Shown: one piece after another, positions 19,068-53,694 of the stretch
Layout of the letters: the number at the start of each line of letters is the position of its first letter
Position numbering within the stretch: the first letter of the stretch is position 1
Translations under genes and position numbers: made by a program
Origin: Candidatus Micrarchaeota archaeon
GTDB taxonomy: Archaea > Micrarchaeota > Micrarchaeia > Anstonellales > Bilamarchaeaceae
NCBI GenBank assembly: GCA_043827025.1
Contig: JBDRPL010000032.1
Span: 1-64,000 of the forward strand
Reading direction: 5' to 3'
Length of the DNA stretch: 64,000 nucleotides
Notes under the pieces: model-generated
Seen by the model: the letters and a program-made list of their open reading frames with translations, nothing else
The model's database searches: none
Told to the model about the DNA's origin: nothing

Positions 19068-20096
19068 TCAACTGTGCTCCAGAACATACTTCCCATATAG
19101 TTTATTGAATATCCTGTAAATGCCACGCTTCACTCTTATTATGCTCCCCTTTTTTTCCATCCTGAGAAGGAGAGTAGTCACAGTATTCATGGGTTTTTTG
19201 CTTTCTTCTGAAATCTCCTTTGCACTCTTCTCCTTTTCAGCCAAAAGCCTCAGCAGTTCTCTTTCAGACTCTGACAACTCATAATATACCTTGTCGAACA
19301 TCTCTTTTGAAAGCTTTGCCATTATCGACGGCAGATGAAGCAAGTAATGGCCTTGGGTTATTATCTTTTCATTTTCCCTTAACTTTCCATAAAGGATGGA
19401 ACAGATTTCCCATATCATGAAAGGGTGGCCTTCCGAATCCCGGTATATTGTTTTTATACATTCTTCTCCCATTTTTATGTTGGTGCCTGAGAGGTATACT
19501 TCCATATAACTCCTGGTTTCCTGTTCTGTGAAAAGCTCTATTTTTATCTTTTTATCCAGATATATCTTATTACTGCAGGTTCCTGAAAATACAAACATGA
19601 ATGGCCTTTTGTTTCTCATAACTCCCTTCAGCATTTTGTCTATCTTTGCAGTCTCTCTTATCTCATTGCAGTTTTCAATCAGAAAAAGGATGCCATGTAC
19701 ATTATTTTTTATTTTGTCATATATTTTCTCTATCTTCTCATAGTTTTGCATCTTCCCTTCGATAATATGTTCAAAATATTCCCTGTTGTTCTTGGATGGG
19801 ATTTCCACAAGCATGTGCATTGCAGAGTTTGCAGTTTCCCTGATTAATCTTTCATCAAGCATTTCTTTCTTTTGCATAGCAAGATGGATCACCATGAATC
19901 TTCTTTTCTCAGCCATTTCCTCTACCTTTTCAAGGATAAAGCTCTTTCCTATTCCTTTCATTCCAACCAAACCAACTGCCTTTGGTTCGTAATATGCTGA
20001 AGATGATAAGTCTTCCTCAAGTTCCCTGAGTATGCCCTTTCTTCCTATGAATAGCCTTTTTGTTCTGAATGGGTTTTCCTGCTTCTCTTCTTTCAT
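19068..20096 (-). CDS. Archaeal STAND/AAA-type ATPase with C-terminal winged helix
   Basis: NPF..FIGRKG, Walker A GMKGIGKS, SEGHPF, C-terminal wHTH; start reassigned to ATG 20096. Confidence 0.78.
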   Translation of the reverse strand: MKEEKQENPFRTKRLFIGRKGILRELEEDLSSSAYYEPKAVGLVGMKGIGKSFILEKVEEMAEKRRFMVIHLAMQKKEMLDERLIRETANSAMHMLVEIPSKNNREYFEHIIEGKMQNYEKIEKIYDKIKNNVHGILFLIENCNEIRETAKIDKMLKGVMRNKRPFMFVFSGTCSNKIYLDKKIKIELFTEQETRSYMEVYLSGTNIKMGEECIKTIYRDSEGHPFMIWEICSILYGKLRENEKIITQGHYLLHLPSIMAKLSKEMFDKVYYELSESERELLRLLAEKEKSAKEISEESKKPMNTVTTLLLRMEKKGSIIRVKRGIYRIFNKLYGKYVLEHS

Positions 20097-20208
20097 AATC
20101 TGTTTTAAGACGTAACTATTTAAAAAACTACATTTTTTGTCGTTTTTGTCAGAACCCTCAACCCTCCAAACTATAACATTTATAAAGAGTCCAAGCAGCA
20201 ATTATATC

Positions 20209-23200
20209 ATGGACTTTAAATTGATAAGTATTTTTGTGGCGTTTCTGCTTGTTTTGTCTACCCTAGGGGCAGCGGATCCAATTCCTGTTCCAGGAGCACA
20301 ACAGGATTCCAACATCCTGGTTGAAACAAGAGTCGCTGTATTGTATCAGGAATCAGATTGCAAAACTGATGCTTTTGGAACCACATGCGAACAGAAAGGC
20401 CTGGTTCCAATAGTAATACAGGGTTTTTCAAAATCCCTGGCGTCTTCGGATGAGATACAGGCCCAGATTCAGAAATGTATAAGAGACAATCCGCAGTCTG
20501 CAAATGAGAAATGCGGAGTCAATTCATTATTCGGCGGCCAGATGAAGGAGTATCTTCAGAGCGTTGCAATGAGAGATTCGTCTAATATACTGCCAACAGT
20601 TGCAGACGATGGCAAGGTCCAGGTTGTTTTCTACGGGGAAGACGGCACTTTCCTAGAGGGTGTTGATTGTACTACGCCATGGACTCAAGTTGTTTCCACT
20701 ACAAATGCAGACAATATTGCAGGAGTTGGAAGCGAGGTGGAAGTCGTTTCACGATACTGTGTTATTTCTAAACAATATTATTCTAAGACATGCAATTCTT
20801 TTGTTGCATTTTACGCTCCTGGGGGAAAAATAGATTATAATACCAGGTCCAATTCAATTCAGCTTTGTGACAATGAGATAAGCGCTTTAGGCGGGTTCCG
20901 TTCCAAACTTTCAGAAATAATGAACACTGCAACCAACGTGACCTATTGTTTCCCATTTGCAATTCTCATGGGACTTTTATTTGCTTCCATGTACTTCAGC
21001 GGAAAGAGCCCTATAACTCTTTTGGACATTTCGTCTCCAAAGCTTCCTTCTCCGAAAACATTCGCAGCAGGCGGACAGGTGCTTGGAGGTTTTGGTTATA
21101 GTGAAATGAAGAAAGTAGCTGGTGGAAAGATGGCACTTGCTGGAAAAGCAATATACCAGCTTTCTCGCGCAGGCGTTTCGGGTGGATTGAATGCAAGGGC
21201 GGAACAGTTCGTTGACAAGTCATTGGCTGCAAAGGGAAAAGTTGAAGCCTATGCTGACAAAAAAGCAGAATTAGGCGGACAGAGAACCAAGGATTTCCTT
21301 TATGGTATGTATGTAGGAGGAACAAAAGCAGGTTTCACGCATGAACAGCTTTCCCAGCTTGCCATGAATCCAAGGCATTGGGGAGAGAAAGAGCAGGCTC
21401 TTGCAGGTAAGGTTATAAATAAATTAGAAGGTATGAAAGGAAGTACTGGCATGCTTGGAGCTAATCTTAAAGAGTTCCAGTTTGCAAACGTAACTCAACA
21501 TCATCTTGAACAACTTACTGGTGCCCCAGATATAGGAAAGAGGAGTGTAGTTATGCTTACTGCCCAATCTGCGGTAGGAAAATACATGGGTTTGAAGCAC
21601 TTTGCCCAGATTGGAGGTTTTTTCCCTGCAGCATTTGATTCTACAGTAAGGTCTTTCCAGGTTTTTGGAAGATTCGGAAAGGCAGTTGTTGCAACCCCAT
21701 TGAAACCAGTTGCTAATGCATTGGGATTGAAGACACTACATAAGCATCTTGAAGGTTGGACAGGCGGTCTCGTAGACCTTGGCGGTTTCTATCCAATAAG
21801 AGAAAGGATGAAAAACCAATATCAGATATGGAATGACGAGGCGAAAAGAGACCTTATGAGAGGCCTTATGGCGGATATGTTCAGGGCAAAAGGCATGAAC
21901 TTCAACATGTCAGCAGAGCAGATGCTTGAAATCGCTTACAAGAAGGTTGATTGGCTAAAGAAGTGCGGATATTCTAATGACCCTAGATTACAGGCTCTTG
22001 AAAGGGAATTAAGGGCAATTCTTGCAAATGAAACAATGACACTGAGCCAGAAACTAGAGGCTTTAGTTACGCTTGCAAGGTCCAATAATGCTTCATCAAA
22101 GACTTCAGCAGTTTTAGAGGAATTGGCTGTTTTGGAAAGAATAGAAAACAGCGGAGAAGAAAGCCATGTGAAAATGGTCAGGTTGTATGATCACATAGCA
22201 AACGGCAGACCTAACTATGAGTATGCAATACTCCATGATAATATAGATGATCCTCGCAAAGGCCATCAGATGTTTGAAGTCTTGATATTCAGGTCTTACA
22301 TAGACCAGGCAGAGAATGGCCATCTTGCACAGAGCGCAGGAATAAAGGAAGTAATAATGCAGGAGTATTTACATGAGTTAAATAGGTTGATTACTCTTAG
22401 GCCGAACAGAGAAATGGGAGCAGATAATATTAGTGATTCCGCAAAGATGCTTGGCAAACAATTTGGTGTTGATCCTCATGTTTACCATGAAATAGAACAG
22501 CATGCATTAATCTATATGAAAGAACTTATAACTGATGAAGGAAGAGCAGTCCTTGACAAATATCTTGCAAAGAACAACAAATCGTTTGAGCAGGCCAACA
22601 TAGGAGATTTCTTCAATGTCCTTTACGGATGGAAGGAAGCATATGCACATTTGGGAATAGATGTTGACAAACAAGTTGTTGATCCTTCATTGTTAATTAA
22701 AGGATGGGGAGACAAGGATCTTACTGAGTCTTTGAAGAAGGGTGAAAATCCTCTCAAATCAGATCTTCTGAGTGCCAAAGAAGGTGCAATAAGGGATCCA
22801 AAGTCTGGCCAGGTTATATGGCTGGGCGACTTGGATGAAATAGGTCCACATGCCAACTGGTGGAAAGCAGACATGAAGAGGCACTGGCAAAAGGAAATGG
22901 ATCCAAGAGCTTCGTTCTCAATAACCGAATGGGTCAATATGCGTTTTACCAGGGCACACTATGACCCAGTGAATCCAGTCATAGAAAGGCAGTTAAGACA
23001 GGAGATGGTACAAAGCGGGGTGAACCCAGACCAGACTCATACTTGGACGCCTAACCAGGTTTCACAATGGAAACAGAAACGTGAACAATTATGGGTACTG
23101 GATAGGATGAAGGAGGATATGAAATCATATTTCAACTCCACATTCGGCCAGAACACATATTCCAACTCAAGGGAAACTGCGAACTTCTATGCGAAATCAC

Positions 23201-25299
23201 TTGCAGGATTCCTTGCAGCTTCGCTTAACACAAGGCAGGATGACCTTAGGACTCACAAAGAACTTGAAAGCATTGATGTTGGGAACAGGGATGCGCTTAA
23301 CCACCTGGGAAATCTTGCACAGGCAAGGTCACGTTCTCTGGAAGAGTACATCAAGAAAGGCCCTACATATAATTCAATCGTTAACTCAGGCAATCCATGG
23401 GTTATGATGCATGAAGGAGGTTGGGCTCCGCATGTGCATGGCATGAGATTGGGCCAGGGTGACAGGGTTCTTGGCGGATATGTTGCAATACAAGACGAAC
23501 ACGGAAAATGGAGGAGATTCGATCCGGATTCCGTGAGAGTTGATTTTGCAAAGTTCGGAAGAGGGGACCTTATGGAGCAGTATAACCGCCTTGGTGGAGG
23601 AATTCACGAAGATGAGCAGGGAATGGGTGCACACCAGGCGCAGACTGATAAGAGAACTGGCAAGCTAATGGCACCTGAAAGGGATCCGCTTGGCTGGGCA
23701 GGTTTCCTTGCCGAGGTTAAAGATTTCACTTCTAAGATGGAAGATAAATTCGAAGGAAAGAAAATGTACAACTCCATTCTTTGGAGCTACACGAACCACA
23801 CTGGGGACTATACAAGATATTACGATGAAAGCGGAGCAAGAATAATTTCAAAGAGAGAAACAACTCCGAATAATCCATTGCGTATGTTCACTTTGAAACA
23901 AGATACTCTATTCGGAACAGATATGTCTGTATTCCAAAAGGTCAGGAATTTTGGACTTGGCTTAGGGGATTATGCGACAAAAATGGCGCTTGCATCTCTT
24001 GGTCCATTGCATACGGCATCATATGGAATAACTTCAACTTCAGAAGTATTCAGGACTGCTTCATTGAGGAATGCAGTGGCTGTGCTTAGGATGAATGAGA
24101 ACGATTGGGAAGCCCACCTTTCAGATATTTCAAATCCTAGGGACAGGGAAACAATTAAGAAATCCCTGATAGCTTCTGCAGTTGCGCATGGTGCTTACCA
24201 TATGGTCTGGGATTTTGCAATAGATAGGAACCCACAGAGAATCAGTGCTTCGCATGGTGTTCATCAGTCTTGGGATTCTTCATTTAACTTTGGACCCCAG
24301 GCCGTCTATCCAATGAGGCAGAATATGAGTCACATGACGCCTACTCAATATGCAATGTATATGATACAGCAGGGAGGTTTACAGTCTCTTGCAGGGGCCA
24401 TGCTCAGGCCTTATGCCTCTATGTTTAGAGCTATGCAGCAGGAAGCTCAGGGTTATGCTTCAAAATGGGATACCACGCAGGATCCGCTCAGGCACTGGCA
24501 ATATACTGATGTTAGGTCTTTGAATCTTACAAGGGTTTTAACCAATCCGATTTCCACTTATCGTGGAGAAGATTCAGTAACTGGCTGGTTCAAGAAAAAA
24601 CTGGGCATGGATGAAAGTTCTTTCAGAAATCCTGCTGAGTGGGCACAGCTTGCAGGAAAGGACATGGCCAGAGGTTTACTACAGCAGCCTCTTGATATCA
24701 TGCATTATGCGCAGGGCGGTGGTCTTTATGCCAACGCAAGGACTGGAGAAGCAAATCCAGGTGCATCCTATTACACATACAGGCATGTGCTCAAGACTGA
24801 CCCGATATCTGCAGAATACCTGGTAAGAGGGGTTGGTGCACAGACTGAGTTCTACAAGAACATCGCCTCAATAAGGGATCAGGCATATTCCAAGATATAT
24901 ACTAGGGAAATAAGTGATGTCGGCCTTCAGATGAGAAGGGAGCAGGAGCTTCGTGGATTCGGTTTCGGCCAGAATACGATGAATGCCTGGCTGACTCCAC
25001 TTAGTTATGTATGGCACAGCGGTATACTTTCGCCAGTAGGCCTTGGTACTCCGTTCACTCCTTTCATGGCACCTAAAGACATTGTCATGAAAGCTAAAAC
25101 TCAAGGGTGGCTCCATGCACTGAATCCAGGGAATTATCTTCCAAGCGGGGCAAATCCAGCGAACTGGGGCAAAGGCCAGTCTGACTTGAAAGGCGCAGCG
25201 CAAAGAGCAGCTCCATGGAACGCAGCCAATGTCATTGTATGTACTTGTGGAAAGCAGAAGCTGAGGAATGCAGTGTGTAGCTTTTGCCACAAAGTATAA
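20209..25299 (+). CDS. Giant (~1696 aa) signal-peptide, single-TM hypothetical protein with C-terminal Zn ribbon
   Basis: MDFKLISIFVAFLLVLSTLGA signal; Cys-rich ectodomain; TM YCFPFAILMGLLFASMYF; terminal CTC..CSFC. Confidence 0.8.
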   Translation: MDFKLISIFVAFLLVLSTLGAADPIPVPGAQQDSNILVETRVAVLYQESDCKTDAFGTTCEQKGLVPIVIQGFSKSLASSDEIQAQIQKCIRDNPQSANEKCGVNSLFGGQMKEYLQSVAMRDSSNILPTVADDGKVQVVFYGEDGTFLEGVDCTTPWTQVVSTTNADNIAGVGSEVEVVSRYCVISKQYYSKTCNSFVAFYAPGGKIDYNTRSNSIQLCDNEISALGGFRSKLSEIMNTATNVTYCFPFAILMGLLFASMYFSGKSPITLLDISSPKLPSPKTFAAGGQVLGGFGYSEMKKVAGGKMALAGKAIYQLSRAGVSGGLNARAEQFVDKSLAAKGKVEAYADKKAELGGQRTKDFLYGMYVGGTKAGFTHEQLSQLAMNPRHWGEKEQALAGKVINKLEGMKGSTGMLGANLKEFQFANVTQHHLEQLTGAPDIGKRSVVMLTAQSAVGKYMGLKHFAQIGGFFPAAFDSTVRSFQVFGRFGKAVVATPLKPVANALGLKTLHKHLEGWTGGLVDLGGFYPIRERMKNQYQIWNDEAKRDLMRGLMADMFRAKGMNFNMSAEQMLEIAYKKVDWLKKCGYSNDPRLQALERELRAILANETMTLSQKLEALVTLARSNNASSKTSAVLEELAVLERIENSGEESHVKMVRLYDHIANGRPNYEYAILHDNIDDPRKGHQMFEVLIFRSYIDQAENGHLAQSAGIKEVIMQEYLHELNRLITLRPNREMGADNISDSAKMLGKQFGVDPHVYHEIEQHALIYMKELITDEGRAVLDKYLAKNNKSFEQANIGDFFNVLYGWKEAYAHLGIDVDKQVVDPSLLIKGWGDKDLTESLKKGENPLKSDLLSAKEGAIRDPKSGQVIWLGDLDEIGPHANWWKADMKRHWQKEMDPRASFSITEWVNMRFTRAHYDPVNPVIERQLRQEMVQSGVNPDQTHTWTPNQVSQWKQKREQLWVLDRMKEDMKSYFNSTFGQNTYSNSRETANFYAKSLAGFLAASLNTRQDDLRTHKELESIDVGNRDALNHLGNLAQARSRSLEEYIKKGPTYNSIVNSGNPWVMMHEGGWAPHVHGMRLGQGDRVLGGYVAIQDEHGKWRRFDPDSVRVDFAKFGRGDLMEQYNRLGGGIHEDEQGMGAHQAQTDKRTGKLMAPERDPLGWAGFLAEVKDFTSKMEDKFEGKKMYNSILWSYTNHTGDYTRYYDESGARIISKRETTPNNPLRMFTLKQDTLFGTDMSVFQKVRNFGLGLGDYATKMALASLGPLHTASYGITSTSEVFRTASLRNAVAVLRMNENDWEAHLSDISNPRDRETIKKSLIASAVAHGAYHMVWDFAIDRNPQRISASHGVHQSWDSSFNFGPQAVYPMRQNMSHMTPTQYAMYMIQQGGLQSLAGAMLRPYASMFRAMQQEAQGYASKWDTTQDPLRHWQYTDVRSLNLTRVLTNPISTYRGEDSVTGWFKKKLGMDESSFRNPAEWAQLAGKDMARGLLQQPLDIMHYAQGGGLYANARTGEANPGASYYTYRHVLKTDPISAEYLVRGVGAQTEFYKNIASIRDQAYSKIYTREISDVGLQMRREQELRGFGFGQNTMNAWLTPLSYVWHSGILSPVGLGTPFTPFMAPKDIVMKAKTQGWLHALNPGNYLPSGANPANWGKGQSDLKGAAQRAAPWNAANVIVCTCGKQKLRNAVCSFCHKV

Positions 25300-25411: not shown

Positions 25412-28366
25412 ATGAAAAAAACATTCGTTTTAACATTTGTTGTTCTGATGTTTCTTTTATTCGGATGCATAAGCAACATGGCTGAGTATTCAGCTGTTTA
25501 CGGAGACAAGGATTTTTTCAATAAACGTTCAACAGAAGATGAGCCCATGCCATGTACCTTCGGCCCATGCGCCTGTTTTGTGTGCACAAAAACCTCGAGC
25601 TTCTTCAACATATTCACTTCTTTCAGTAGCCAGCCAAACCAGCCAGTGGAATGCAAGGTCAATCTGGATTGCAAATATGATGGTTATCTAGACCAGCTCT
25701 TGAAACCACCTTATGAGCTTCCTAATGATGAATATCTCATGAATTTCCTGATCGGCGCTCCTTCTTCTCAATTCAGCCAGTCGAATGCATTATGTGAAAA
25801 TAGATTAGATATGAGTGTCAAATGGGTGCTTGGCTCAAATAATCCTAATGACCATTATGAATCTATTGACAGTAGCCGTGCAACCTGCTATCTTGACATC
25901 GGCGTAATTCCTGTTTATGTTCTTTACACACAACCTCCTAAGGGCGAGGAGAGGCGGCCTCTTGATAATGGTGATATCCTTGCTGCAGAGAAAATCGCAA
26001 AAGCACTTGATGGAACAGGCCCTGTCATAATAACTGCTGAAGCAGAGTTCGACAGTTCAAATTCTAATGATATTGCTATAGTGAAAGAACAGCTGAGAGT
26101 GATGAAAGCAGCATGCCCCCATTGCATGATTGCCCTTGCGCCAAGATATATGGATACAACAGGAATAGATGACATTCTCAGTGACCAGTCTGTTATTCCT
26201 AGTGTAGATCTCATTGCATTTGGCATAAATACAGATTATTCACAAACCAAATGCAATCCAGGTTCAATTTTTAGGGAAGCTGGAGAATTTTCCAGATATA
26301 TTCTTTACAAACATCAAAAACCAAGTGTAATTACATATATGTACTTTAATACAAAAGAACCAACAAAGGGAACTCCCGTTCCTCCTGCTGCAACTGATCC
26401 CCTGGCATGCACATGGGCAGATTATGATATTACCAATCCAAATGGAGAAAATGTGTATTCGACATTCTTTGCTATTGAAACCATTTCAGGCTTCATAAAA
26501 TCAGGAGTTCTTGGAGCAGCGTTTTATTCATATGATCCCTATGAAGCCGATCCATTCTACTGCAAGGAAACCGGAGTAAAAAATGAATGCTCATTAGGCA
26601 AGTCTGCTGATTCTGAAAAAAGCTTCTTTGCGCCATGCCAGAAATACAAGAAGACTGAAAGCCAGTACGAGAACGGCGATCCTCTTCTTAAGTTGAATGC
26701 AGGTATGAAATTACTGTTTCCTGCTGCAAAAGGCGCCACCTGTTCATTGAGCCACCAAAACAACCTTATTTCTTTGATTCTTGCCAGTGACTATAGAAAT
26801 AAGGATATAACACAGCCAGTTGTTTCGGAGATGAGGCCAAAGGCAGAACTGAGCCTTTCATGCGATGCATGCGCCAATTCGGATTACACCGGAAAGTTTC
26901 CATTCAATATAAACAAGAATGGTTTCCCTAGTCTTGATTATAAAAAAGCATGGTGCGCTTCTTCACAGGACGAGTCAAACTCAGTAACTATTACTACGCC
27001 TCTTGGAAATGATCCAAATTACGAAGAAATAGGTTCAATGGTTGATTATTATGCAGACAAGAGGGATCTTGACCCTTACATCATACGTGCGAACATAATT
27101 GGAGAGAGCCAGTATGATAAATGCGAAATAAGTTTTTTCCTGCCTTTAAACCATGCTTGTAATCCTTTAGGAGTTGTGACTGGTGAAGATGGCAAGCCCT
27201 TTGGGGAAAACAGCAAGGGAATCAATGATGTTGATTCAGACTGCAATGCCAACATTAATTTACAGTTTACCCGTGATTCAAAGCTTGTTAATAATAAACC
27301 CACGATGAAATCCTGCGCCTATGGGGTAATGCAGGCAATTGAATATCCTGCCGATGTCAGGGAACGACTGAAGGCTGAATCAGAGCTTCCGCAAAACACA
27401 CCATCTGTTGATCCTGTGGCATTTCTTTCAGTCCGGAGGCTGGCAAATGGGGATATACGGCCTCTTACAAGTGCTGAGAAAGATAAGATCAAGGCAGTTC
27501 TCATTGATAATGGCCCACATGGCGAAGTCAATATCTATACTCAGTTGGACAATTCTGAATGCCTTGGTTCAGATGCCAAATACAATCCATTCAACATCGA
27601 CGATTCAATGTGCTGGGGAACATTGAAATTGAGATTGATGCTTGATTCTGCAATCGGCCTTGTGAAGGGAAAGGAAATAGATTATGGTTTTGTGGATGAC
27701 GATGATCCTACAAAAATAGACTCTGATAAGGTGAGGGTTGCTGAATACTATATCGCACTGCAGAAATACGGTGGCGGATGGAAGGACGACTGGTTGGCAA
27801 AGTATAAACTTTATCTCAAAACTCCGGGAGTGTGGTGCGATCCTGCAATTGATCCAGAACGTACCCGGAACACAGATTGCAAAGTTGATGGTGGAAACTA
27901 TGTTTTTACGTCTGATGATGAGACAAGGTGCTACGGGCAAACAGATTTCCTGAAATTCATGGAAAGATGCGTTTATTATAATTTAAATGAAAAAGGAAGG
28001 CTTCAGCCTGGGGATGACAAATACGAGCGAGATTCTGCCATGGGAAAGATAAAGTGGTACAAGGCTCTGACAGTTCCTTACAATGAGAATAATGAGATTA
28101 ACACTGGTTGCAAGCATTCGACTTGCCCTTCACCTGTATTGTCCGGTCTTTACGTGCAGTGCAAAGCTATCTTTGATCCTAATCCGCCTAGAAAATCCTG
28201 TTGGGATGATGAAAAAAAGGAGTGCAATGAAGAATGTGCAGCAAGGGCATTTTGTGCAACCTTGACAGACCCAGTCACCCACCAATCTTGTTTACAGGGT
28301 GGCGTATGCGTGGAAAGCTGTATCGCTAAGAACCAGGGAGTTGTTGGTGCGAATGGCGCACAATAA
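25412..28366 (+). CDS. Cys-rich lipoprotein with glycoside-hydrolase-like and lytic transglycosylase (SLT-like) domains
   Basis: Lipobox LLFGC; SLT motifs LDPYIIRANIIGES, AYGVMQ, NPFNIDDSMCWG, ALQKYGGG. Confidence 0.72.
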   Translation: MKKTFVLTFVVLMFLLFGCISNMAEYSAVYGDKDFFNKRSTEDEPMPCTFGPCACFVCTKTSSFFNIFTSFSSQPNQPVECKVNLDCKYDGYLDQLLKPPYELPNDEYLMNFLIGAPSSQFSQSNALCENRLDMSVKWVLGSNNPNDHYESIDSSRATCYLDIGVIPVYVLYTQPPKGEERRPLDNGDILAAEKIAKALDGTGPVIITAEAEFDSSNSNDIAIVKEQLRVMKAACPHCMIALAPRYMDTTGIDDILSDQSVIPSVDLIAFGINTDYSQTKCNPGSIFREAGEFSRYILYKHQKPSVITYMYFNTKEPTKGTPVPPAATDPLACTWADYDITNPNGENVYSTFFAIETISGFIKSGVLGAAFYSYDPYEADPFYCKETGVKNECSLGKSADSEKSFFAPCQKYKKTESQYENGDPLLKLNAGMKLLFPAAKGATCSLSHQNNLISLILASDYRNKDITQPVVSEMRPKAELSLSCDACANSDYTGKFPFNINKNGFPSLDYKKAWCASSQDESNSVTITTPLGNDPNYEEIGSMVDYYADKRDLDPYIIRANIIGESQYDKCEISFFLPLNHACNPLGVVTGEDGKPFGENSKGINDVDSDCNANINLQFTRDSKLVNNKPTMKSCAYGVMQAIEYPADVRERLKAESELPQNTPSVDPVAFLSVRRLANGDIRPLTSAEKDKIKAVLIDNGPHGEVNIYTQLDNSECLGSDAKYNPFNIDDSMCWGTLKLRLMLDSAIGLVKGKEIDYGFVDDDDPTKIDSDKVRVAEYYIALQKYGGGWKDDWLAKYKLYLKTPGVWCDPAIDPERTRNTDCKVDGGNYVFTSDDETRCYGQTDFLKFMERCVYYNLNEKGRLQPGDDKYERDSAMGKIKWYKALTVPYNENNEINTGCKHSTCPSPVLSGLYVQCKAIFDPNPPRKSCWDDEKKECNEECAARAFCATLTDPVTHQSCLQGGVCVESCIAKNQGVVGANGAQ

Positions 28367-34458: not shown

Positions 34459-34576
34459 GCCACCGTGGCTCAGTTGGTAGAGCGTGTGCTTGGTAAGAAA
34501 CTCTTTCGGGGTGCCTAAAGAGTTTCATCAGAAACCAATGAGTACAAGGTCGTGAGTTCAATTCTCGCCGGTGGCT
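34459..34576 (+). tRNA. tRNA-Thr(GGT) with a 45-nt intron at 37/38 (34496-34540)
   Basis: Acceptor GCCACCG/CGGTGGC, D arm GCTC/GAGC, anticodon GGT 34492-34494, T arm GTGAG-TTCAATT-CTCGC; TTGG/CCAA central helix of a relaxed BHB. Confidence 0.93.
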
Positions 34577-34681
34577 TCTCATTTTTTATTCGAAGCCACC
34601 TATTTTATGCCTCACATAAAATCTCTCGAAATTCTCATTGAATTTCTCGATCGCCGGTGGCATTTCATTTTTTTATTCGAA
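34565..34681 (+). repeat. Direct repeat of the tRNA-Thr 3' end
   Basis: tcgccggtggc..tcatttttt(t)attcgaa at 34565-34594 and 34651-34681, offset 86 bp. Confidence 0.8.
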
Positions 34682-47299: not shown

Positions 47300-47506
47300 A
47301 TGGGGTTATTTATGTCAAAACTTTTCTGTCCGAAGTGCAAGAAAGGGGTTGTTCTACTTGGCGGAGATGTAGTTGACGAAAGAACTGAGGAGCTTATGCA
47401 AAAAATAAAGGATGAAGGGAATATTCCAATGATGAAAGGTTATCCTCCAGTTGGCTACAAATTATTATGTCCCGTTTGCCAGACGGTGCTTCAGAAAAAA
47501 AGGTGA
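47300..47506 (+). CDS. Small Zn-ribbon protein, paralog of the upstream gene
   Basis: CPKC...CPVC. Confidence 0.65.
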   Translation: MGLFMSKLFCPKCKKGVVLLGGDVVDERTEELMQKIKDEGNIPMMKGYPPVGYKLLCPVCQTVLQKKR

Positions 47507-47510
47507 AAAA

Positions 47511-48806
47511 ATGATTTCGTTTCGTGAATTTGTTGAAAAAATTAAGAAGAATGGAAAATTGGTTGAATTGAAGAAGCCAATCTCAAAGTATCTTGACCTT
47601 GCCGGGATTTTGAGCCAGCTGGATGGCAAGCCTGTAATTGGCGAGGCGAAAGAAGGAGGCAGGTTCGCAGGTAATGTCTTTTCCACAAAGGAATTGGTTG
47701 CTGAATGCCTTGGCGTTTCAGTAAGCGAACTCATCCCTAAACTGACGAATGCAATCAACAATCCAACAAAACCCAAGACTGTAGACGCTAAGAACGCGCC
47801 TGTTCTTGAAGTCGAAGAAAAGAACGTTGATCTTTCAAAACTACCCATTCCATTCCATGCTGAAAAAGACGGCGGGCCTTATTTTTCTTCGGCTGTAATC
47901 ATTGCAAATGATTCCCAATACGGCAGAAACTGTTCATTTCATCGAATGATGGTGATTGGCAAAGACGAATTGGTGATGCGAATACTTCCAAGGCATCTTA
48001 ATGAATTCATAAAGCGCGCTGGCGGAGAGCTTGATGTTGCGTTTGTCCTTGGCGCTCCAATAAATGTCCTTCTTTCAGGCGCAATCTCAGTTGATCTTGG
48101 AAAGGATGAATTGACCATTGCCAATAGTTTGATGCCTGTGAACACTGTCAAACTAAGTAATGGTATTGAAGTTCCTGCAGATGCGGAATTTGCATTCGAA
48201 GGAAAAATCACAAAGGAAATGGTTGATGAAGGTCCGTTCATAGATCTTACTGAAACATATGACATTGTAAGGAAACAGCCGGTGATGAAAGTCACTAGGG
48301 TTTATCATAGAAAAGATCCAATCTGGCACGTTCTTCTGCCTGGTGGTCTGGAGCACAAGATATTGATGGGAATGCCAAGAGAGCCAACCATCTTCAATGA
48401 AGTCAATAAGGTTTGTGAGTGCAAGGGCGTCAATATAACTCCGGGAGGTTGCTCATGGCTTCATGCCGTGGTTGCAATAAGGAAAAAGAAGGAAGATGAT
48501 GGCAAGAAGGCAATTGAAGCTGCATTCAAAGGTCACAAGTCATTGAAGCACGTTGTAATTGTTGATGAAGATATTGACATCTACAATCCAATGAGTGTTG
48601 AATGGGCAATTGCAACAAGGGTTCAGGCAGACAAAAGCATAGTGATAAAGCAGAATGAGAAAGGTTCTTCTCTTGACCCCTCGGCAGACCCGAACACATT
48701 GGCAACAACAAAGATGGGTGTTGATGCCACAAAGCCACTAGTCGCTCATGGGAAAAACTTTGAGATGGCAGACTACAAGAAGATGGATGTGAAGAAATAT
48801 CTCTAA
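47511..48806 (+). CDS. ubiD: UbiD-family decarboxylase, probable trans-anhydromevalonate phosphate decarboxylase
   Basis: DGGPY, NCSFHR, EGPF, VDEDID, VEWAIATR, SLDPS, KMGVDAT; clustered with ubiX and acnX. Confidence 0.9.
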   Translation: MISFREFVEKIKKNGKLVELKKPISKYLDLAGILSQLDGKPVIGEAKEGGRFAGNVFSTKELVAECLGVSVSELIPKLTNAINNPTKPKTVDAKNAPVLEVEEKNVDLSKLPIPFHAEKDGGPYFSSAVIIANDSQYGRNCSFHRMMVIGKDELVMRILPRHLNEFIKRAGGELDVAFVLGAPINVLLSGAISVDLGKDELTIANSLMPVNTVKLSNGIEVPADAEFAFEGKITKEMVDEGPFIDLTETYDIVRKQPVMKVTRVYHRKDPIWHVLLPGGLEHKILMGMPREPTIFNEVNKVCECKGVNITPGGCSWLHAVVAIRKKKEDDGKKAIEAAFKGHKSLKHVVIVDEDIDIYNPMSVEWAIATRVQADKSIVIKQNEKGSSLDPSADPNTLATTKMGVDATKPLVAHGKNFEMADYKKMDVKKYL

Positions 48807-48861
48807 TACGCACTTTGCCATGCGTGCGAATACTTTTATATTCTATAGTTGAATCTTTACC

Positions 48862-49446
48862 ATGAAAAAATTACTGTTAGTTGTTTTTCTGCTGTTTGTT
48901 TTTGGTTGCACAAGCATGACTCCGGATGCGAGCACAAATGCAAGTGCGAAGACCCAGGCAAATGCAGCGGATGGAAGTGTTGCTATGACAAAAAACATTG
49001 TTGAAAAAGGAGATATGGTCTCAGTGGATTATGTAGGAACTCTAAGTGATGGGACTGTATTTGACACAAGCCTTAGGGATGTTGCTCAAAACGCAGGCCT
49101 TGAGCTGAGACCGAGCTACCAGCCATTGTCATTTAGCGTAGGCGCAGGCCAGATGATTCCAGGTTTTGATAATGGGGTAGTTGGTATGAAAGAAGGCGAA
49201 GAAAAAACCATTTTCATAAATGCAAAGGATGCCTATGGGGAATCCACTCCTGACAATATCGTTCAAGTTCCGGTCGATGCAATTGATGGTACACCTACCG
49301 TAGGGCAGATATTGCAGGCAAACAATGGTGCAATGGGTGTTGTAACCTCTGTAACTAGTGATAGGATTACAGTTGATTTCAACCATCCGTTGGCAGGAAA
49401 GGATTTAACCTTTAAAGTAACAGTAAGAAGCATAAAAAAGAAGTAA
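48862..49446 (+). CDS. FKBP-type peptidyl-prolyl isomerase (lipoprotein)
   Basis: Lipobox VFGC; DYVGTL.DG.VFDTS, GAGQMIPGF, DFNHPLAGK. Confidence 0.9.
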   Translation: MKKLLLVVFLLFVFGCTSMTPDASTNASAKTQANAADGSVAMTKNIVEKGDMVSVDYVGTLSDGTVFDTSLRDVAQNAGLELRPSYQPLSFSVGAGQMIPGFDNGVVGMKEGEEKTIFINAKDAYGESTPDNIVQVPVDAIDGTPTVGQILQANNGAMGVVTSVTSDRITVDFNHPLAGKDLTFKVTVRSIKKK

Positions 49447-49485
49447 AATTGATTGGTTATCGAATTAGATGGTTGAGTTGGTCGA

Positions 49486-50703
49486 ATGATTCTTACAAAG
49501 CAAGAGCAGAAGATGCTTGAAGGAGAGCATGGCGAAGCAGTTCAGCAGTCAATGGAGATACTTGTTGCACTTGGCAAGATCTACGATGCTGAGAAAATGA
49601 TCCAAGTGAAAAGTGCGCAGATATCCGGCGTCTCATATAAAACTATTGGTGATGCAGGGCTTGCATATCTGCAGGATTTGGCTTCCAAGCATGCAAGAGT
49701 CAAAATCCCATCTTTCCTGAATCCAGCTGGCATGGATCGACGCCAGTGGAAGGAGATGAAAATTCCAGAAGAGTTTGCAAAAAAGCAGATTGAAATCCTT
49801 GATGCATATACTTCGATGCACATTATGCCTACCTGCACTTGTGCACCCTATGAAATCGGGATAAGACCTAGAAAACATGACCACATTGCATGGTCTGAGA
49901 GCTCGGCAGTTTCTTTTACAAACTCTGTTTTAGGCGCACGAACCAATCGAGAAGGCGGGCCAAGCGCATTGGCAGCTGCAATTTGTGGCATTACTCCTTC
50001 CTATGGGTTGCATCTTGATGAGAACAGAGTTTCAGAATTGGTTATTGATGTTGAATGCAAACTGAATAATGCAAGCGATTTTGCAGCATTGGGCGTTTAT
50101 GTTGGCAAGCTTGCAAAGAACAAGCACCCTGCATTTAAAGGAGTGAGAAAGAGCATGTACGGCTCAAGAATACATGATGAGGATTTGCTCAAATCCCTTG
50201 GTGCAGCAATGGCAGCCTCGGGTTCAGTAGCATTGTTTTATGTGGAGGATACGACTCCAGAATATGCAGTTTCAAAAAAACCGGAAAAAATCTCATTCAC
50301 TGAAAAGGAATTGAATGCCGCCAGGAAGGAATTGAACAAATGCAATGAAAAGCCGGAGATAATAACTCTTGGCTGTCCGCACGCTTCCCTTGAACAGATA
50401 AGGGAGGTTGCAAAACTTCTGCGAAAGAAAAAACTTACTTGCGAACTATGGGTATGCACATCACAGCAGATGAAGAAAAGGGCAGATGCCTATGGCTATG
50501 CAGCAATAATAGAAAAAGCAGGTGGAAAATTAATCGCAGATACTTGCATGGTTGTCTGCCCATTGGAAACAATTGGATACAAAATCACAGGAGCAGATTC
50601 AGGTAAGGCAGCCAAATATTTAGAGAGCCTGTGCAAGCAGAAGGTCGTCTTCAATGACATGAAGACGCTGATTGAGAATAACTCTGAATCCATAAAGAAG
50701 TGA
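49486..50703 (+). CDS. Aconitase X large subunit (phosphomevalonate dehydratase L)
   Basis: SAQISGVSYKTIG, CTCAPY, WSESSA, GARTNREGG, GCPH, DTCMVV, SGKAA. Confidence 0.92.
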   Translation: MILTKQEQKMLEGEHGEAVQQSMEILVALGKIYDAEKMIQVKSAQISGVSYKTIGDAGLAYLQDLASKHARVKIPSFLNPAGMDRRQWKEMKIPEEFAKKQIEILDAYTSMHIMPTCTCAPYEIGIRPRKHDHIAWSESSAVSFTNSVLGARTNREGGPSALAAAICGITPSYGLHLDENRVSELVIDVECKLNNASDFAALGVYVGKLAKNKHPAFKGVRKSMYGSRIHDEDLLKSLGAAMAASGSVALFYVEDTTPEYAVSKKPEKISFTEKELNAARKELNKCNEKPEIITLGCPHASLEQIREVAKLLRKKKLTCELWVCTSQQMKKRADAYGYAAIIEKAGGKLIADTCMVVCPLETIGYKITGADSGKAAKYLESLCKQKVVFNDMKTLIENNSESIKK

Positions 50704-51290
50704 TGATTATGCAAATCAAGACCCAAGCAAAAAAGAAAAAAAAGGTTGAAGGGATGGGTAAAACAGACCTATTCTTTTATGTTGGGTTACTTGGTATGCT
50801 CACTCTTATTTTCGGAGTATTTGCCCAACCAGCAACACTTTTACAAAAATCCTTGTTCCTCATTGGTGCGTCTATACTTGCCCTAGTTGCATTAAAAGAT
50901 AATCAGAAGATGCTATTGGTTTTGCAGATGCTTATCACATTTGCCAATATCCTGGCTTTTTTGGATTTTGGAGGTATTCTTAAGTATGGCCTATTGCTGG
51001 GTGTTGCGATAGTTGGAATCGGTTACCTTGTGTTCATCAAATACTATGAAACAGATCGTTTTGGTTGGATAGGGACTGTTGGCCTTTTGCTGCTTGCAAT
51101 TGGTTTTGCCACTGACGCTAGTACACAACCATTTTATTTTGGAATTTTACTTGGATCAGGTGCATTGCTTGTTGCGGCATACTCTTTTATAGACTATTAT
51201 CAGACCAAAGGAAAGATCTCACTTATTTGGTTTGTTTTGAACATAATATTTGCAATAAATCCTTTGATATTGGCTTTAACAAACATGTGA
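50700..51290 (+). CDS. Multi-TM membrane protein
   Basis: Six to seven hydrophobic helices in two similar halves. Confidence 0.75.
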   Translation: MMIMQIKTQAKKKKKVEGMGKTDLFFYVGLLGMLTLIFGVFAQPATLLQKSLFLIGASILALVALKDNQKMLLVLQMLITFANILAFLDFGGILKYGLLLGVAIVGIGYLVFIKYYETDRFGWIGTVGLLLLAIGFATDASTQPFYFGILLGSGALLVAAYSFIDYYQTKGKISLIWFVLNIIFAINPLILALTNM

Positions 51291-51294
51291 TTAT

Positions 51295-51693
51295 ATGGAT
51301 GTCCTCGGTAGAATTATCTCAAAAGGGAAAGCAAGTGGCCCAGTTCTCATTTCGAAAGATTCAATTTCATTCCTTGGAGGAGTTGATCCGAAAACCGGAA
51401 TCGTAATCGAGAAAGGCCATGCAATCGAAGGAAAGAATGTTTCAGGAAAAGTTTTGGTTTTTCCTTCTGGAAAAGGTTCGACGGTTGGATCTTATGTCAT
51501 GCTTCAATTAAAGAAGAATGGGACAGCGCCAGTTGCAATTATAAACCTGGAGGCGGAGCCAATCATCGCAGTTGGCGCAATCATCGCACACATTCCATTA
51601 TTGGATCAATTGGAAAAGGATCCGTTCAAACTATTGAAAGACGGACAGACAGTTACAGTGGATGCGGATAAAGGAATATTGAGCTACGTGTGA
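51295..51693 (+). CDS. Aconitase X swiveling small subunit (DUF126; phosphomevalonate dehydratase S)
   Basis: ISFLGGVDPKTG, GKGSTVGSY. Confidence 0.92.
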   Translation: MDVLGRIISKGKASGPVLISKDSISFLGGVDPKTGIVIEKGHAIEGKNVSGKVLVFPSGKGSTVGSYVMLQLKKNGTAPVAIINLEAEPIIAVGAIIAHIPLLDQLEKDPFKLLKDGQTVTVDADKGILSYV

Positions 51694-53159: not shown

Positions 53160-53297
53160 ATATGATTCAAGATAATTCAAATTTTTTCTTATTTTTCTTT
53201 TTAGTTTTCTGTTTCTAGATGATTAGTTGGCTATGTTTACAAGGTTAGAAAACAGGTTTTCTTTTTTGGTTACATCTAGCGTTTCTTTTCGAAAGAA

Positions 53298-53396
53298 AAA
53301 TTTTATTGGACAAGCCTTGAACTATTGTTCACGACAGTTAAAAGCAGGTTTTCTTTGATTAAAATTTCTTTTACAAAAGAAATTTTATTGGACAAG
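53298..53396 (-). repeat. 17-bp direct repeat of the tRNA-Ala 3' end
   Basis: aaattttattggacaag at 53298-53314 and 53380-53396, offset 82 bp. Confidence 0.8.
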
Positions 53397-53550
53397 AAGG
53401 GATTTGAACCCTCAGCCTCCCCCAGTTCGGAGTCTTCGGTTTCCAGTTTCCCGTTTTGAGCCCGTAAAACAAAAAATACAAGACTCAAAACTCTAGACCG
53501 AAAACTTATTACTTCGCCAAGGGGGCACTCTACCGTTGAGCTACATGCCC
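53389..53550 (-). tRNA. tRNA-Ala(GGC) with a 90-nt intron at 37/38 (53425-53514)
   Basis: Acceptor GGGCATG/CTTGTCC with G3:U70 Ala identity pair; anticodon stem CCCCC/GGGGG; T loop TTCAAAT; canonical BHB. Confidence 0.92.
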
Positions 53551-53648
53551 GAATGAAATGAAGGTATGGAGCGAACTTGAGTAACACCCAACTTTCTTGA
53601 TGAAACTTCTTTGGCAACCCGAAAGAAGTTTCTGCTACATGCCCGAAT
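53540..53648 (-). mobile_element. 79-bp hairpin insertion (53555-53633) flanked by a 15-bp direct repeat of the tRNA-Ala 5' end
   Basis: gctacatgcccgaat at 53540-53554 and 53634-53648; insert hairpin nearly identical to the tRNA-Thr intron. Confidence 0.6.
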
Positions 53649-53694
53649 AGGTACTAAGTATAAGTGGTAGTGTTTATATTTGTTTTTCTATCTC

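Follow-up and report, generated by a model that had tools for sequence, protein, structure and literature searches.

The window considered here is a 64,000-nucleotide (nt) stretch of contig C32 of a 1.33 Mb, 91.6% complete archaeal genome (G000), whose Kae1-like protein, encoded in the window, has its closest relatives in Candidatus Micrarchaeota (identity up to 74%). A short hairpin occurs in it ahead of the tRNA-Ala(GGC) gene, in a leader insert framed by two copies of the tRNA 5' end, and again as the intron of tRNA-Thr(GGT). Sequence comparison indicates that this hairpin is a member of a non-coding, mobile repeat family of ~30-60 nt with the conserved symmetry of a class II intrastrand triplex, and a mobile triplex-symmetric repeat family forming both tRNA introns and duplicated-end inserts is well supported. 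The reading as a family and as a triplex is held to be very likely. A preliminary description of the window had proposed one hairpin element with these two forms; both forms were recovered, the single element gave way to a family, and the conserved feature proved to be a three-strand symmetry and not a mere hairpin.

Three-strand symmetry of the element

The element is laid out as a pyrimidine arm, a purine arm, a short linker and a mirror copy of the purine arm, the last two strands reading AAAGAA then AAGAAA in the leader and AAAGA then AGAAA in the Thr intron. As previously described, the leader hairpin has one extra T in its 5' arm and one extra A in its 3' arm compared to the Thr hairpin; a third extra A, in the tail, had been missed.

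Covariation of the three strands was scored over 3.05 Mb of sequence from G000 itself and from fetched archaeal loci, which yielded 95 candidates (94 distinct, 93 scorable), 90 loci having been picked in related, hence not independent, genomes with a pattern that requires a purine tail and leaves the position of the G free. The run of A beside the internal G was of equal length in arm and tail in 68 of the 93 elements, compared with a permutation mean of 19.7 and a maximum of 36 in 20,000 permutations. Seventy-three cases discriminate between a mirror and a direct repeat, and 54 of them showed the mirror and 4 the direct repeat. When metagenomes were scanned with the tail left free, 65 loci (56 distinct) were obtained and the predicted mirror was present in 46/56, with four others one letter off and six further off. 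All three strands change together between the orthologous Arg(TCT) introns of G000 and the same-genus genome G001. Such three-way covariation across many variants is strong comparative evidence for a selected triple helix. At a separate locus (L326:1501), a T-loop intron contains an approximately elevenfold expansion of the 10-nt linker-plus-tail, which points to slippage of a polymerase on the tail.

Triplexes of the purine motif are stated by Holder et al. (2015, PMC4666352) to be impossible in RNA, and the same authors report that the bacterial triplex repeats called PIT elements block DNA polymerase in vitro. It is the purine motif that the tRNA-sense strand of the family bears, and the fold is therefore most likely of consequence in single-stranded DNA.

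Copies, sites and duplications in the genome

Further copies of the hairpin, on which the preliminary description had made its proposal depend, were found: a strict scan for the hairpin plus its mirror tail recovered 19 elements in G000, with none in the reversed genome and 1, 0 and 0 in three shuffles. With flanks read by eye, 18 of the 19 were assigned to tRNA genes, as 13 intronic copies (D-loop, 37/38 and T-arm), three leaders and two trailers, 17 being in tRNA sense and one antisense. This concentration may reflect targeting or mere survival at tRNA genes. In each of the three leader copies the junction follows tRNA position 11, and the duplications are of 12, 15 and 22 nt; the duplications in G000 range from 11 to 22 nt, and the introns carry none. 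Two outcomes are thus apparent from the copies, namely an intron without duplication or an end insertion with a variable duplication.

The inserts hide most tRNA genes of G000 from standard tools, Rfam matching 13 of them and hand listing 39. A 5' duplicate of at least 10 nt was present in 7 of the 39 hand-listed genes (control 0) and a downstream duplicate in 5 (control 1; in five genes the 3' end was either not found or unusable). Other hairpin families lacking the mirror tail were seen in genes for Cys, Leu, Met, Val, Lys, Ser and Pro, with the same 5' and 3' duplications and nested mosaics, and some tRNA genes extend to 300-415 nt.

At tRNA-Ala(GGC), the exact 15-nt direct repeat reported earlier was recovered on the minus strand (Table 1), its spacing of 94 nt giving a 79-nt insert. 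The TATA-like box ahead of the outer repeat was also found, implying that the insert is probably transcribed as a leader, and no such box was seen in the 50 nt ahead of the inner copy. The first 42 nt of the insert are identical to G000:C25:36652-36693, which lies ahead of tRNA-Ala(TGC) and comes there with the 22-nt duplication, and close variants of the leader element are present on contigs C5 and C6. Because of these identical 42 nt, and of 19 elements in the scan versus 0-1 in its controls, the leader hairpin is not a chance similarity. Behind the same tRNA-Ala(GGC) gene, the 3' unit of repeat, element and filler is itself present twice in tandem.

In the unitigs of run X1, each 15-nt copy lies in a unique unitig of its own at a depth of 12.6-14.7, and the unitig of the 3' duplicate has a depth of 30.9, which is double. 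Each outer copy at the two Ala loci (15 and 22 nt) matches the inner copy of its own gene including the flank. An assembly artefact, raised earlier as a possible source of the 15-bp duplication, is hence not borne out in any simple form; run X1 may be the source run of the assembly and its unitigs are connected by a 44-nt node that also belongs to the C25 locus, so that they provide support and not independent proof.

The filler that follows the element bears a weak likeness to the last 37 nt of the tRNA at Ala(GGC) (p 0.054) and a clear one at Cys and Leu(TAG), and it pairs with the outer copy above shuffles in four of nine leaders (p<0.05), Ala(GGC) not being among them (p 0.50). It may be a target-derived counter-strand and a source of bulge-helix-bulge (BHB) helices, or equally the 3' strand of the tRNA itself in a second copy. 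Removal of the leader by splicing through the duplicated 15 nt was considered as well and rejected on inspection, as it would need self-complementary repeats and fails at Arg(CCT).

Gain, loss and swapping among relatives

Thirty Thr(GGT) loci were compared, one being the window's own and two belonging to other tRNAs; of the 27 that remain, 12 have nothing inserted at position 37/38 and 15 carry inserts there that differ in sequence. The syntenic Thr(GGT) gene of G001 holds a different family member, of the type of the Asn intron of G000, and the Ala(CGC) intron of G001 is the G000 Thr intron at 37 of 38 nt. In addition, the syntenic Ala(TGC) gene of G001 lacks the leader insert and has an intron missing from G000, and Gly(TCC) carries two family members in G001 and none in G000. 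For Ala(GGC), 30 loci were read, of which seven are not tRNAs and one is the window's; the leader insert is in none of the other 22, a near-identical gene in G011 has neither the leader insert nor the 90-nt intron, and no orthologue was found in G001 (74% complete). Empty or differently filled orthologous loci, on which the earlier proposal had also been made to depend, therefore exist. Gain, loss and swapping between syntenic genes, together with near-identical copies in different tRNA types, indicate that the family is mobile.

Of 401 Micrarchaeota genomes, 233 had matches to a loose G-containing pattern, with a maximum of 47 in one genome, most reversed-pattern controls giving 0-4 matches; low counts are at chance level, and one of the 401 genomes (G063) was excluded from the high- and low-load tallies below. 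Relatives also show the duplication anatomy at the 5' ends of other tRNA genes (L229, L234, L278) and at the start or stop of protein genes (L030, L276, L286), and family members also lie within rRNA, other RNA genes and protein-gene ends.

Three loci (L017, L333 and L335) have members inserted in apparent 23S and 16S rRNA genes, as read by eye. An all-A member occurs, exactly or nearly so, in intergenic viral DNA (L187, L189, L205, L216, L218, L221 and L222) on IMG/VR contigs, some labelled giant-virus metagenome-assembled genomes, and in places in tandem copies. A 40-nt all-A member is also seen in run X2 as the 37/38 intron of a tRNA-Ala(GGC) contig from another organism, at the equivalent of window positions 53427-53515, the site of the unrelated 90-nt intron of G000.

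Presumed tolerance by the host

The 45-nt Thr(GGT) intron, whose earlier coordinates hold, lies at position 37/38. Its description as a BHB intron holds as far as a relaxed hBH/BHL motif is concerned, with a central helix, a 3-nt bulge at the 3' site and an asymmetric internal loop at the 5' site; the strict hBHBh' motif is not present in the Thr copy. RNA run X4 gave only short pieces, from other tRNA-Thr genes. The splicing endonuclease of the genome, EndA, is of the epsilon2 type (4FZ2, E 4.8e-103), and epsilon2 EndA cuts hBH motifs in vitro according to the portion of PMC3239211 available. An RNase P RNA match is present at E 6e-16, below the gathering score. In the Ala leader, the duplicate restores an intact tRNA 5' end and a promoter-like box precedes the outer copy. 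We infer that the Thr intron would be removed by epsilon2 EndA and the leader trimmed by RNase P, which is in line with the earlier suggestion that such an insert is harmless either as an intron or by duplication of its target.

Mode of spread

The best explanation overall, which we consider probable without great assurance, is a triplex-repeat family spreading by DNA-level copy-in and filtered by the host. Copy-in during DNA synthesis is favoured over cut-and-paste because the duplications are variable, the filler is locus-specific, the ends are ragged, both orientations occur and no enzyme tracks the family. For the copy-in step itself, template switching driven by the host at single-stranded, heavily transcribed genes, with the help of a polymerase-stalling triplex, is a plausible proposal that falls somewhat short of being probable. 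The fold would form in single-stranded DNA, mostly where heavy transcription displaces the RNA-like strand; the end of a newly made DNA strand would leave its target, copy a donor element plus some filler and rejoin the target either slightly upstream, giving a duplication, or in place, giving none. The enzymes used would be those of host replication or repair. Selection would then retain only the harmless outcomes, which are inserts at gene ends, with a duplicate that rebuilds the gene and RNase P trimming the longer leader, and inserts where a relaxed BHB permits removal by the epsilon2 splicing endonuclease. A bolder version, in which the family is minimal selfish DNA without any enzyme of its own, whose triple-stranded fold stalls host DNA synthesis and redirects it into highly transcribed RNA genes and which is the chief origin of the new introns in tRNA and rRNA genes across much of the Micrarchaeota, is put forward only tentatively and is rather doubtful.

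Alternatively, the triplex could be recognised and moved by a dedicated trans-acting enzyme, such as an HUH nuclease of the RAYT kind, or else a nuclease or recombinase that has escaped recognition, which a passing virus or plasmid might carry. Recognition by a protein is the easiest account of the tight conservation of the three-strand shape, inverted doublets of two variants (L325, L328, L361, L362) recall the paired type A and type B triplex motifs of E. coli, G000 has three IS200-type tnpA genes, and the all-A member is found on viral contigs. No transposase, integrase or reverse transcriptase was found among the 64 open reading frames scanned of the 130 listed for the window, in agreement with the preliminary description. 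Genomes of high load (35, of which 33 have at least 10 loose-pattern matches and two at least 11 matches in a separate count) were then compared to 32 of low load, and no tracking was observed for Y1 transposase (11/35 high, 13/32 low), reverse transcriptase (7/35, 7/32), DUF559 (6/35, 3/32) or GIY-YIG (12/35, 7/32, nearly all UvrC-sized). The high-load genomes G033 (97% complete) and G085 (93%) have none of the four; no mobiliser thus emerged from these four families across the 67 genomes, a search that left aside integrase, HNH, Cas1 and primase. The strongest DUF559 match (G082) has no element in its flanks, and 75 scanned of 82 open reading frames beside mostly non-tRNA copies showed no recurring mobility family. 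Moreover, the element ends and duplication lengths vary, and the tnpA genes have end hairpins of their own, unlike the family. On this balance a dedicated enzyme is judged unlikely.

Other sequences related to mobility were noted in G000. They include a Vsr-like gene and a locus resembling a diversity-generating retroelement (DGR; C11:15985-18293), with a target gene, a template-like repeat and a reverse transcriptase gene frameshifted in an AG run. Five near-identical non-coding elements of ~110 nt (C9:47785, C10:12799, C18:3403, C21:4949 and C26:8754) have an inner hairpin in common with the IS200-type gene at C6:11056-11487, where it lies in the ends, and look like an IS200-derived miniature element. 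Both tnpA genes with an assembled left flank have a tRNA-intron-type hairpin just upstream (C9 ~19990-20040 and C6 ~11640-11570), the module on C9 matching the Val(CAC) intron (C25:57050) and that on C6 being the module of the Ser(GGA) intron in reverse complement.

A route through RNA, in which the splicing ligase would rejoin excised introns or fragments of pre-tRNA before their reverse transcription and their return to tRNA genes by recombination, would agree with the 17 of 18 copies in tRNA sense and with the metagenome orientation counts (~20 versus 3 in a crude motif test leaving 24/47 unassigned). Its targets are abundant structural RNAs, and the three leader copies join between GC and A, resembling an anticodon that ends in GC followed by A37. 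It is nonetheless improbable, since the sense-strand fold is of the purine motif that does not form in RNA (PMC4666352, available text), antisense and inverted-pair copies exist, the duplications take in flank outside the mature tRNA, and reverse transcriptase does not track load, the sole such gene found in G000 being the frameshifted DGR-type one.

More improbable still is an account without any mobile element, in which an intron-bearing tRNA gene was duplicated in tandem, the duplication decayed to leave the leader, and ectopic gene conversion spread the introns. The likeness of the filler to the 3' end of the tRNA and the tandem doubling of the 3' unit speak in its favour; uniform decay does not give a perfect duplication and 42 identical nt at two loci with unrelated fillers, the same anatomy is found at protein-gene ends, and the mirror covariation is left unexplained. 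An assembly artefact or a chance likeness of A/T-rich hairpins, for which the shared 44-nt node and the possible origin of the assembly in run X1 leave some room, can practically be set aside given the gene-specific matches of the outer copies, the scan controls of 0-1 and the same anatomy in other genomes (L229, L234, L278).

Several points weigh against a triplex family spread by copy-in. Twenty-five of the 93 scored elements are unmatched, several of them being wrong-strand or register misses that were kept in the count, and the relatedness of the source genomes applies to the whole covariation set. Four of the seven 5' duplication cases carry other, non-triplex hairpins; because these show the same duplications, the triplex is not required for the insertion mode. 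The target-derived counter-strand was detected in only four of nine leaders and not at Ala(GGC), and the strong sense bias fits the RNA route too. The absence of four enzyme families from draft genomes is not proof that host enzymes act alone. The bacterial motif gave no stable triplex in vivo, nor in double-stranded DNA, according to Holder et al. (PMC4666352). Folding, splicing, insertion and mechanism are all deduced from sequence.

Comparison with known systems

The family resembles each of the known systems compared here in parts and departs from each in a defining feature. REP, BIME and REPIN sequences are short palindromic non-autonomous repeats with doublets and module mosaics, to which the family bears a likeness, and movement of REP and REPIN by the RAYT (TnpA-REP) enzyme has been proposed. 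Unlike in that system, no repeat-flanked RAYT-type gene was found in the draft genomes with a loose first filter, Y1 does not track load and no GTAG/CGTC-type foot was seen. Miniature inverted-repeat transposable elements are bounded on either side by terminal inverted repeats and duplicate their target over a fixed length, whereas the family has a hairpin at one end only and duplications of 11-22 nt or none. Palindrome-associated transposable elements (PATEs) derived from IS200/IS605 share their ends with a resident tnpA element and make no target duplication; here the tnpA ends differ and duplications are present. The insert is also unlike att-type tRNA integration, which has an integrase gene and one element-borne att core for every site, being 79 nt long and non-coding with target-specific repeats, the search for integrase having been confined to the window.

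The bacterial BoxC, PIT and TMECO triplex repeats (PMC4666352, available text; Hoyne et al. 2000 as cited there) have been known since the 1990s without a function and have the class II order in common with the family; both are of ~35-40 nt and multi-copy, with inverted pairs of two variants, unstable loci and no known mobiliser. In that text the TMECO consensus is G/C-rich and the E. coli motif is always intergenic without strand bias, whereas the family has A/T-rich arms, 13 of its 19 copies are intronic and 17 of 18 tRNA copies have one orientation. The family further differs from BoxC and PIT in lying in or at tRNA genes and in its strand bias, target duplications and many covarying variants, and the word "tRNA" does not occur in the main text of Holder et al. 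as available (PMC4666352).

Intron transposition in Thermoproteales (Fujishima et al. 2010, as cited in the accessible parts of PMC3239211 and of a 2026 preprint, bioRxiv 10.64898/2026.10.13.758758) likewise involves near-identical introns across tRNA types and positions and a broad-specificity endonuclease. Unlike in that case, the moving unit is here also found outside introns with duplications, in both orientations and with triplex symmetry, in a Micrarchaeote host with epsilon2 EndA. In the portion available of Furuta et al. (2010, PMC2853133), the long-target-duplication insertion of restriction-modification genes leaves variable direct repeats, often over a gene start or stop so that the gene is kept whole, with no other mobile element at the site, as seen here. 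Those inserts are kilobase gene clusters with repeats >30 bp by definition, whereas the present ones are non-coding, of 30-100 nt, with repeats of 11-22 nt in G000; a variable duplication with an empty site in a relative was found (L464, Ala(TGC)), repeats >30 bp and restriction-modification cargo were not. The pNOB8-type insert in tRNA-Thr(GGU) of Caldiarchaeum (Sugahara et al. 2012, PMC3293823, available text) similarly places a second copy of a tRNA 5' fragment ahead of the gene, which is intact, and is linked to intron gain; it is 1.8 kb long and encodes a recombinase, whereas here the insert is 79 nt and non-coding and its repeat differs with each target. Literature searches outside subscription papers yielded none describing the family, with the reserve that supplements of the 2026 preprint may list similar sequences, and it is not described in the accessible part of PMC4060949.

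Further features of the window

The features of the two tRNA loci are listed in Table 1. Elsewhere in the window, two large open reading frames (20137-25299 and 25412-28366; 1720 and 984 aa) have no Pfam match. The region 47451-51693 encodes a UbiD-like protein and the large and small subunits of aconitase X, with UbiX-like, GHMP-kinase and kinase genes close by, a gene set that we take to fit the archaeal modified mevalonate pathway.

Table 1. Features at the tRNA-Ala(GGC) and tRNA-Thr(GGT) loci of the window
Feature	Position	Strand	Remarks
TATA-like box	53673..53678	-	TATAAA; 34 nt ahead of outer G1
Outer copy of the 15-nt duplication	53634..53648	-	4 flanking nt and tRNA positions 1-11; 100% identity
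Triplex-type element of the leader	53593..53633	-	pyrimidine arm 53632-53622, loop, purine arm 53612-53602, 3-nt linker, mirror tail 53598-53593
Locus-specific filler	53555..53592	-	predicted pairing with the outer copy not above that of shuffles (p 0.50)
Inner copy of the 15-nt duplication	53540..53554	-	exact repeat; provides the real tRNA 5' end
tRNA-Ala(GGC) gene	53389..53550	-	Rfam match; G3:U70, discriminator A
Intron of tRNA-Ala(GGC)	53425..53514	-	90 nt, position 37/38, strict BHB, outside the triplex family
Second triplex-type element	53349..53387	-	directly behind the tRNA-Ala 3' end; 13-bp stem, exact 8-nt mirror tail
Duplicate of the tRNA-Ala 3' end and flank	53298..53314	-	17 nt exact with 53396-53380, 82 nt downstream
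Older, decayed triplex-type copy	53257..53300	-	behind the 3' duplicate; read from sequence
tRNA-Thr(GGT) gene	34459..34576	+	Rfam match
Intron of tRNA-Thr(GGT)	34496..34540	+	arms 34497-34506 and 34517-34526; mirror tail 34530-34534; plus strand closing the relaxed hBH
Decayed duplicate of the Thr 3' end and T-rich flank	34651..34681	+	86 nt downstream

Significance

The 2026 preprint names as "the central open problem" how archaeal tRNA genes acquire intron DNA; its tests of copying, mobile elements and reverse transcription in Asgard archaea brought no general route to light. In the present family, the sequence of an intron is seen within introns and, accompanied by fresh duplications, elsewhere too, along with empty and swapped syntenic sites, which makes its arrival at the DNA level directly open to study. 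The family is thus a concrete candidate for the origin of new tRNA introns, and the element is small enough for oligonucleotide tests. If an enzyme-free, triplex-based selfish DNA were true, it would give intrastrand-triplex repeats a biological role and provide a direct mechanism for the birth of BHB introns.
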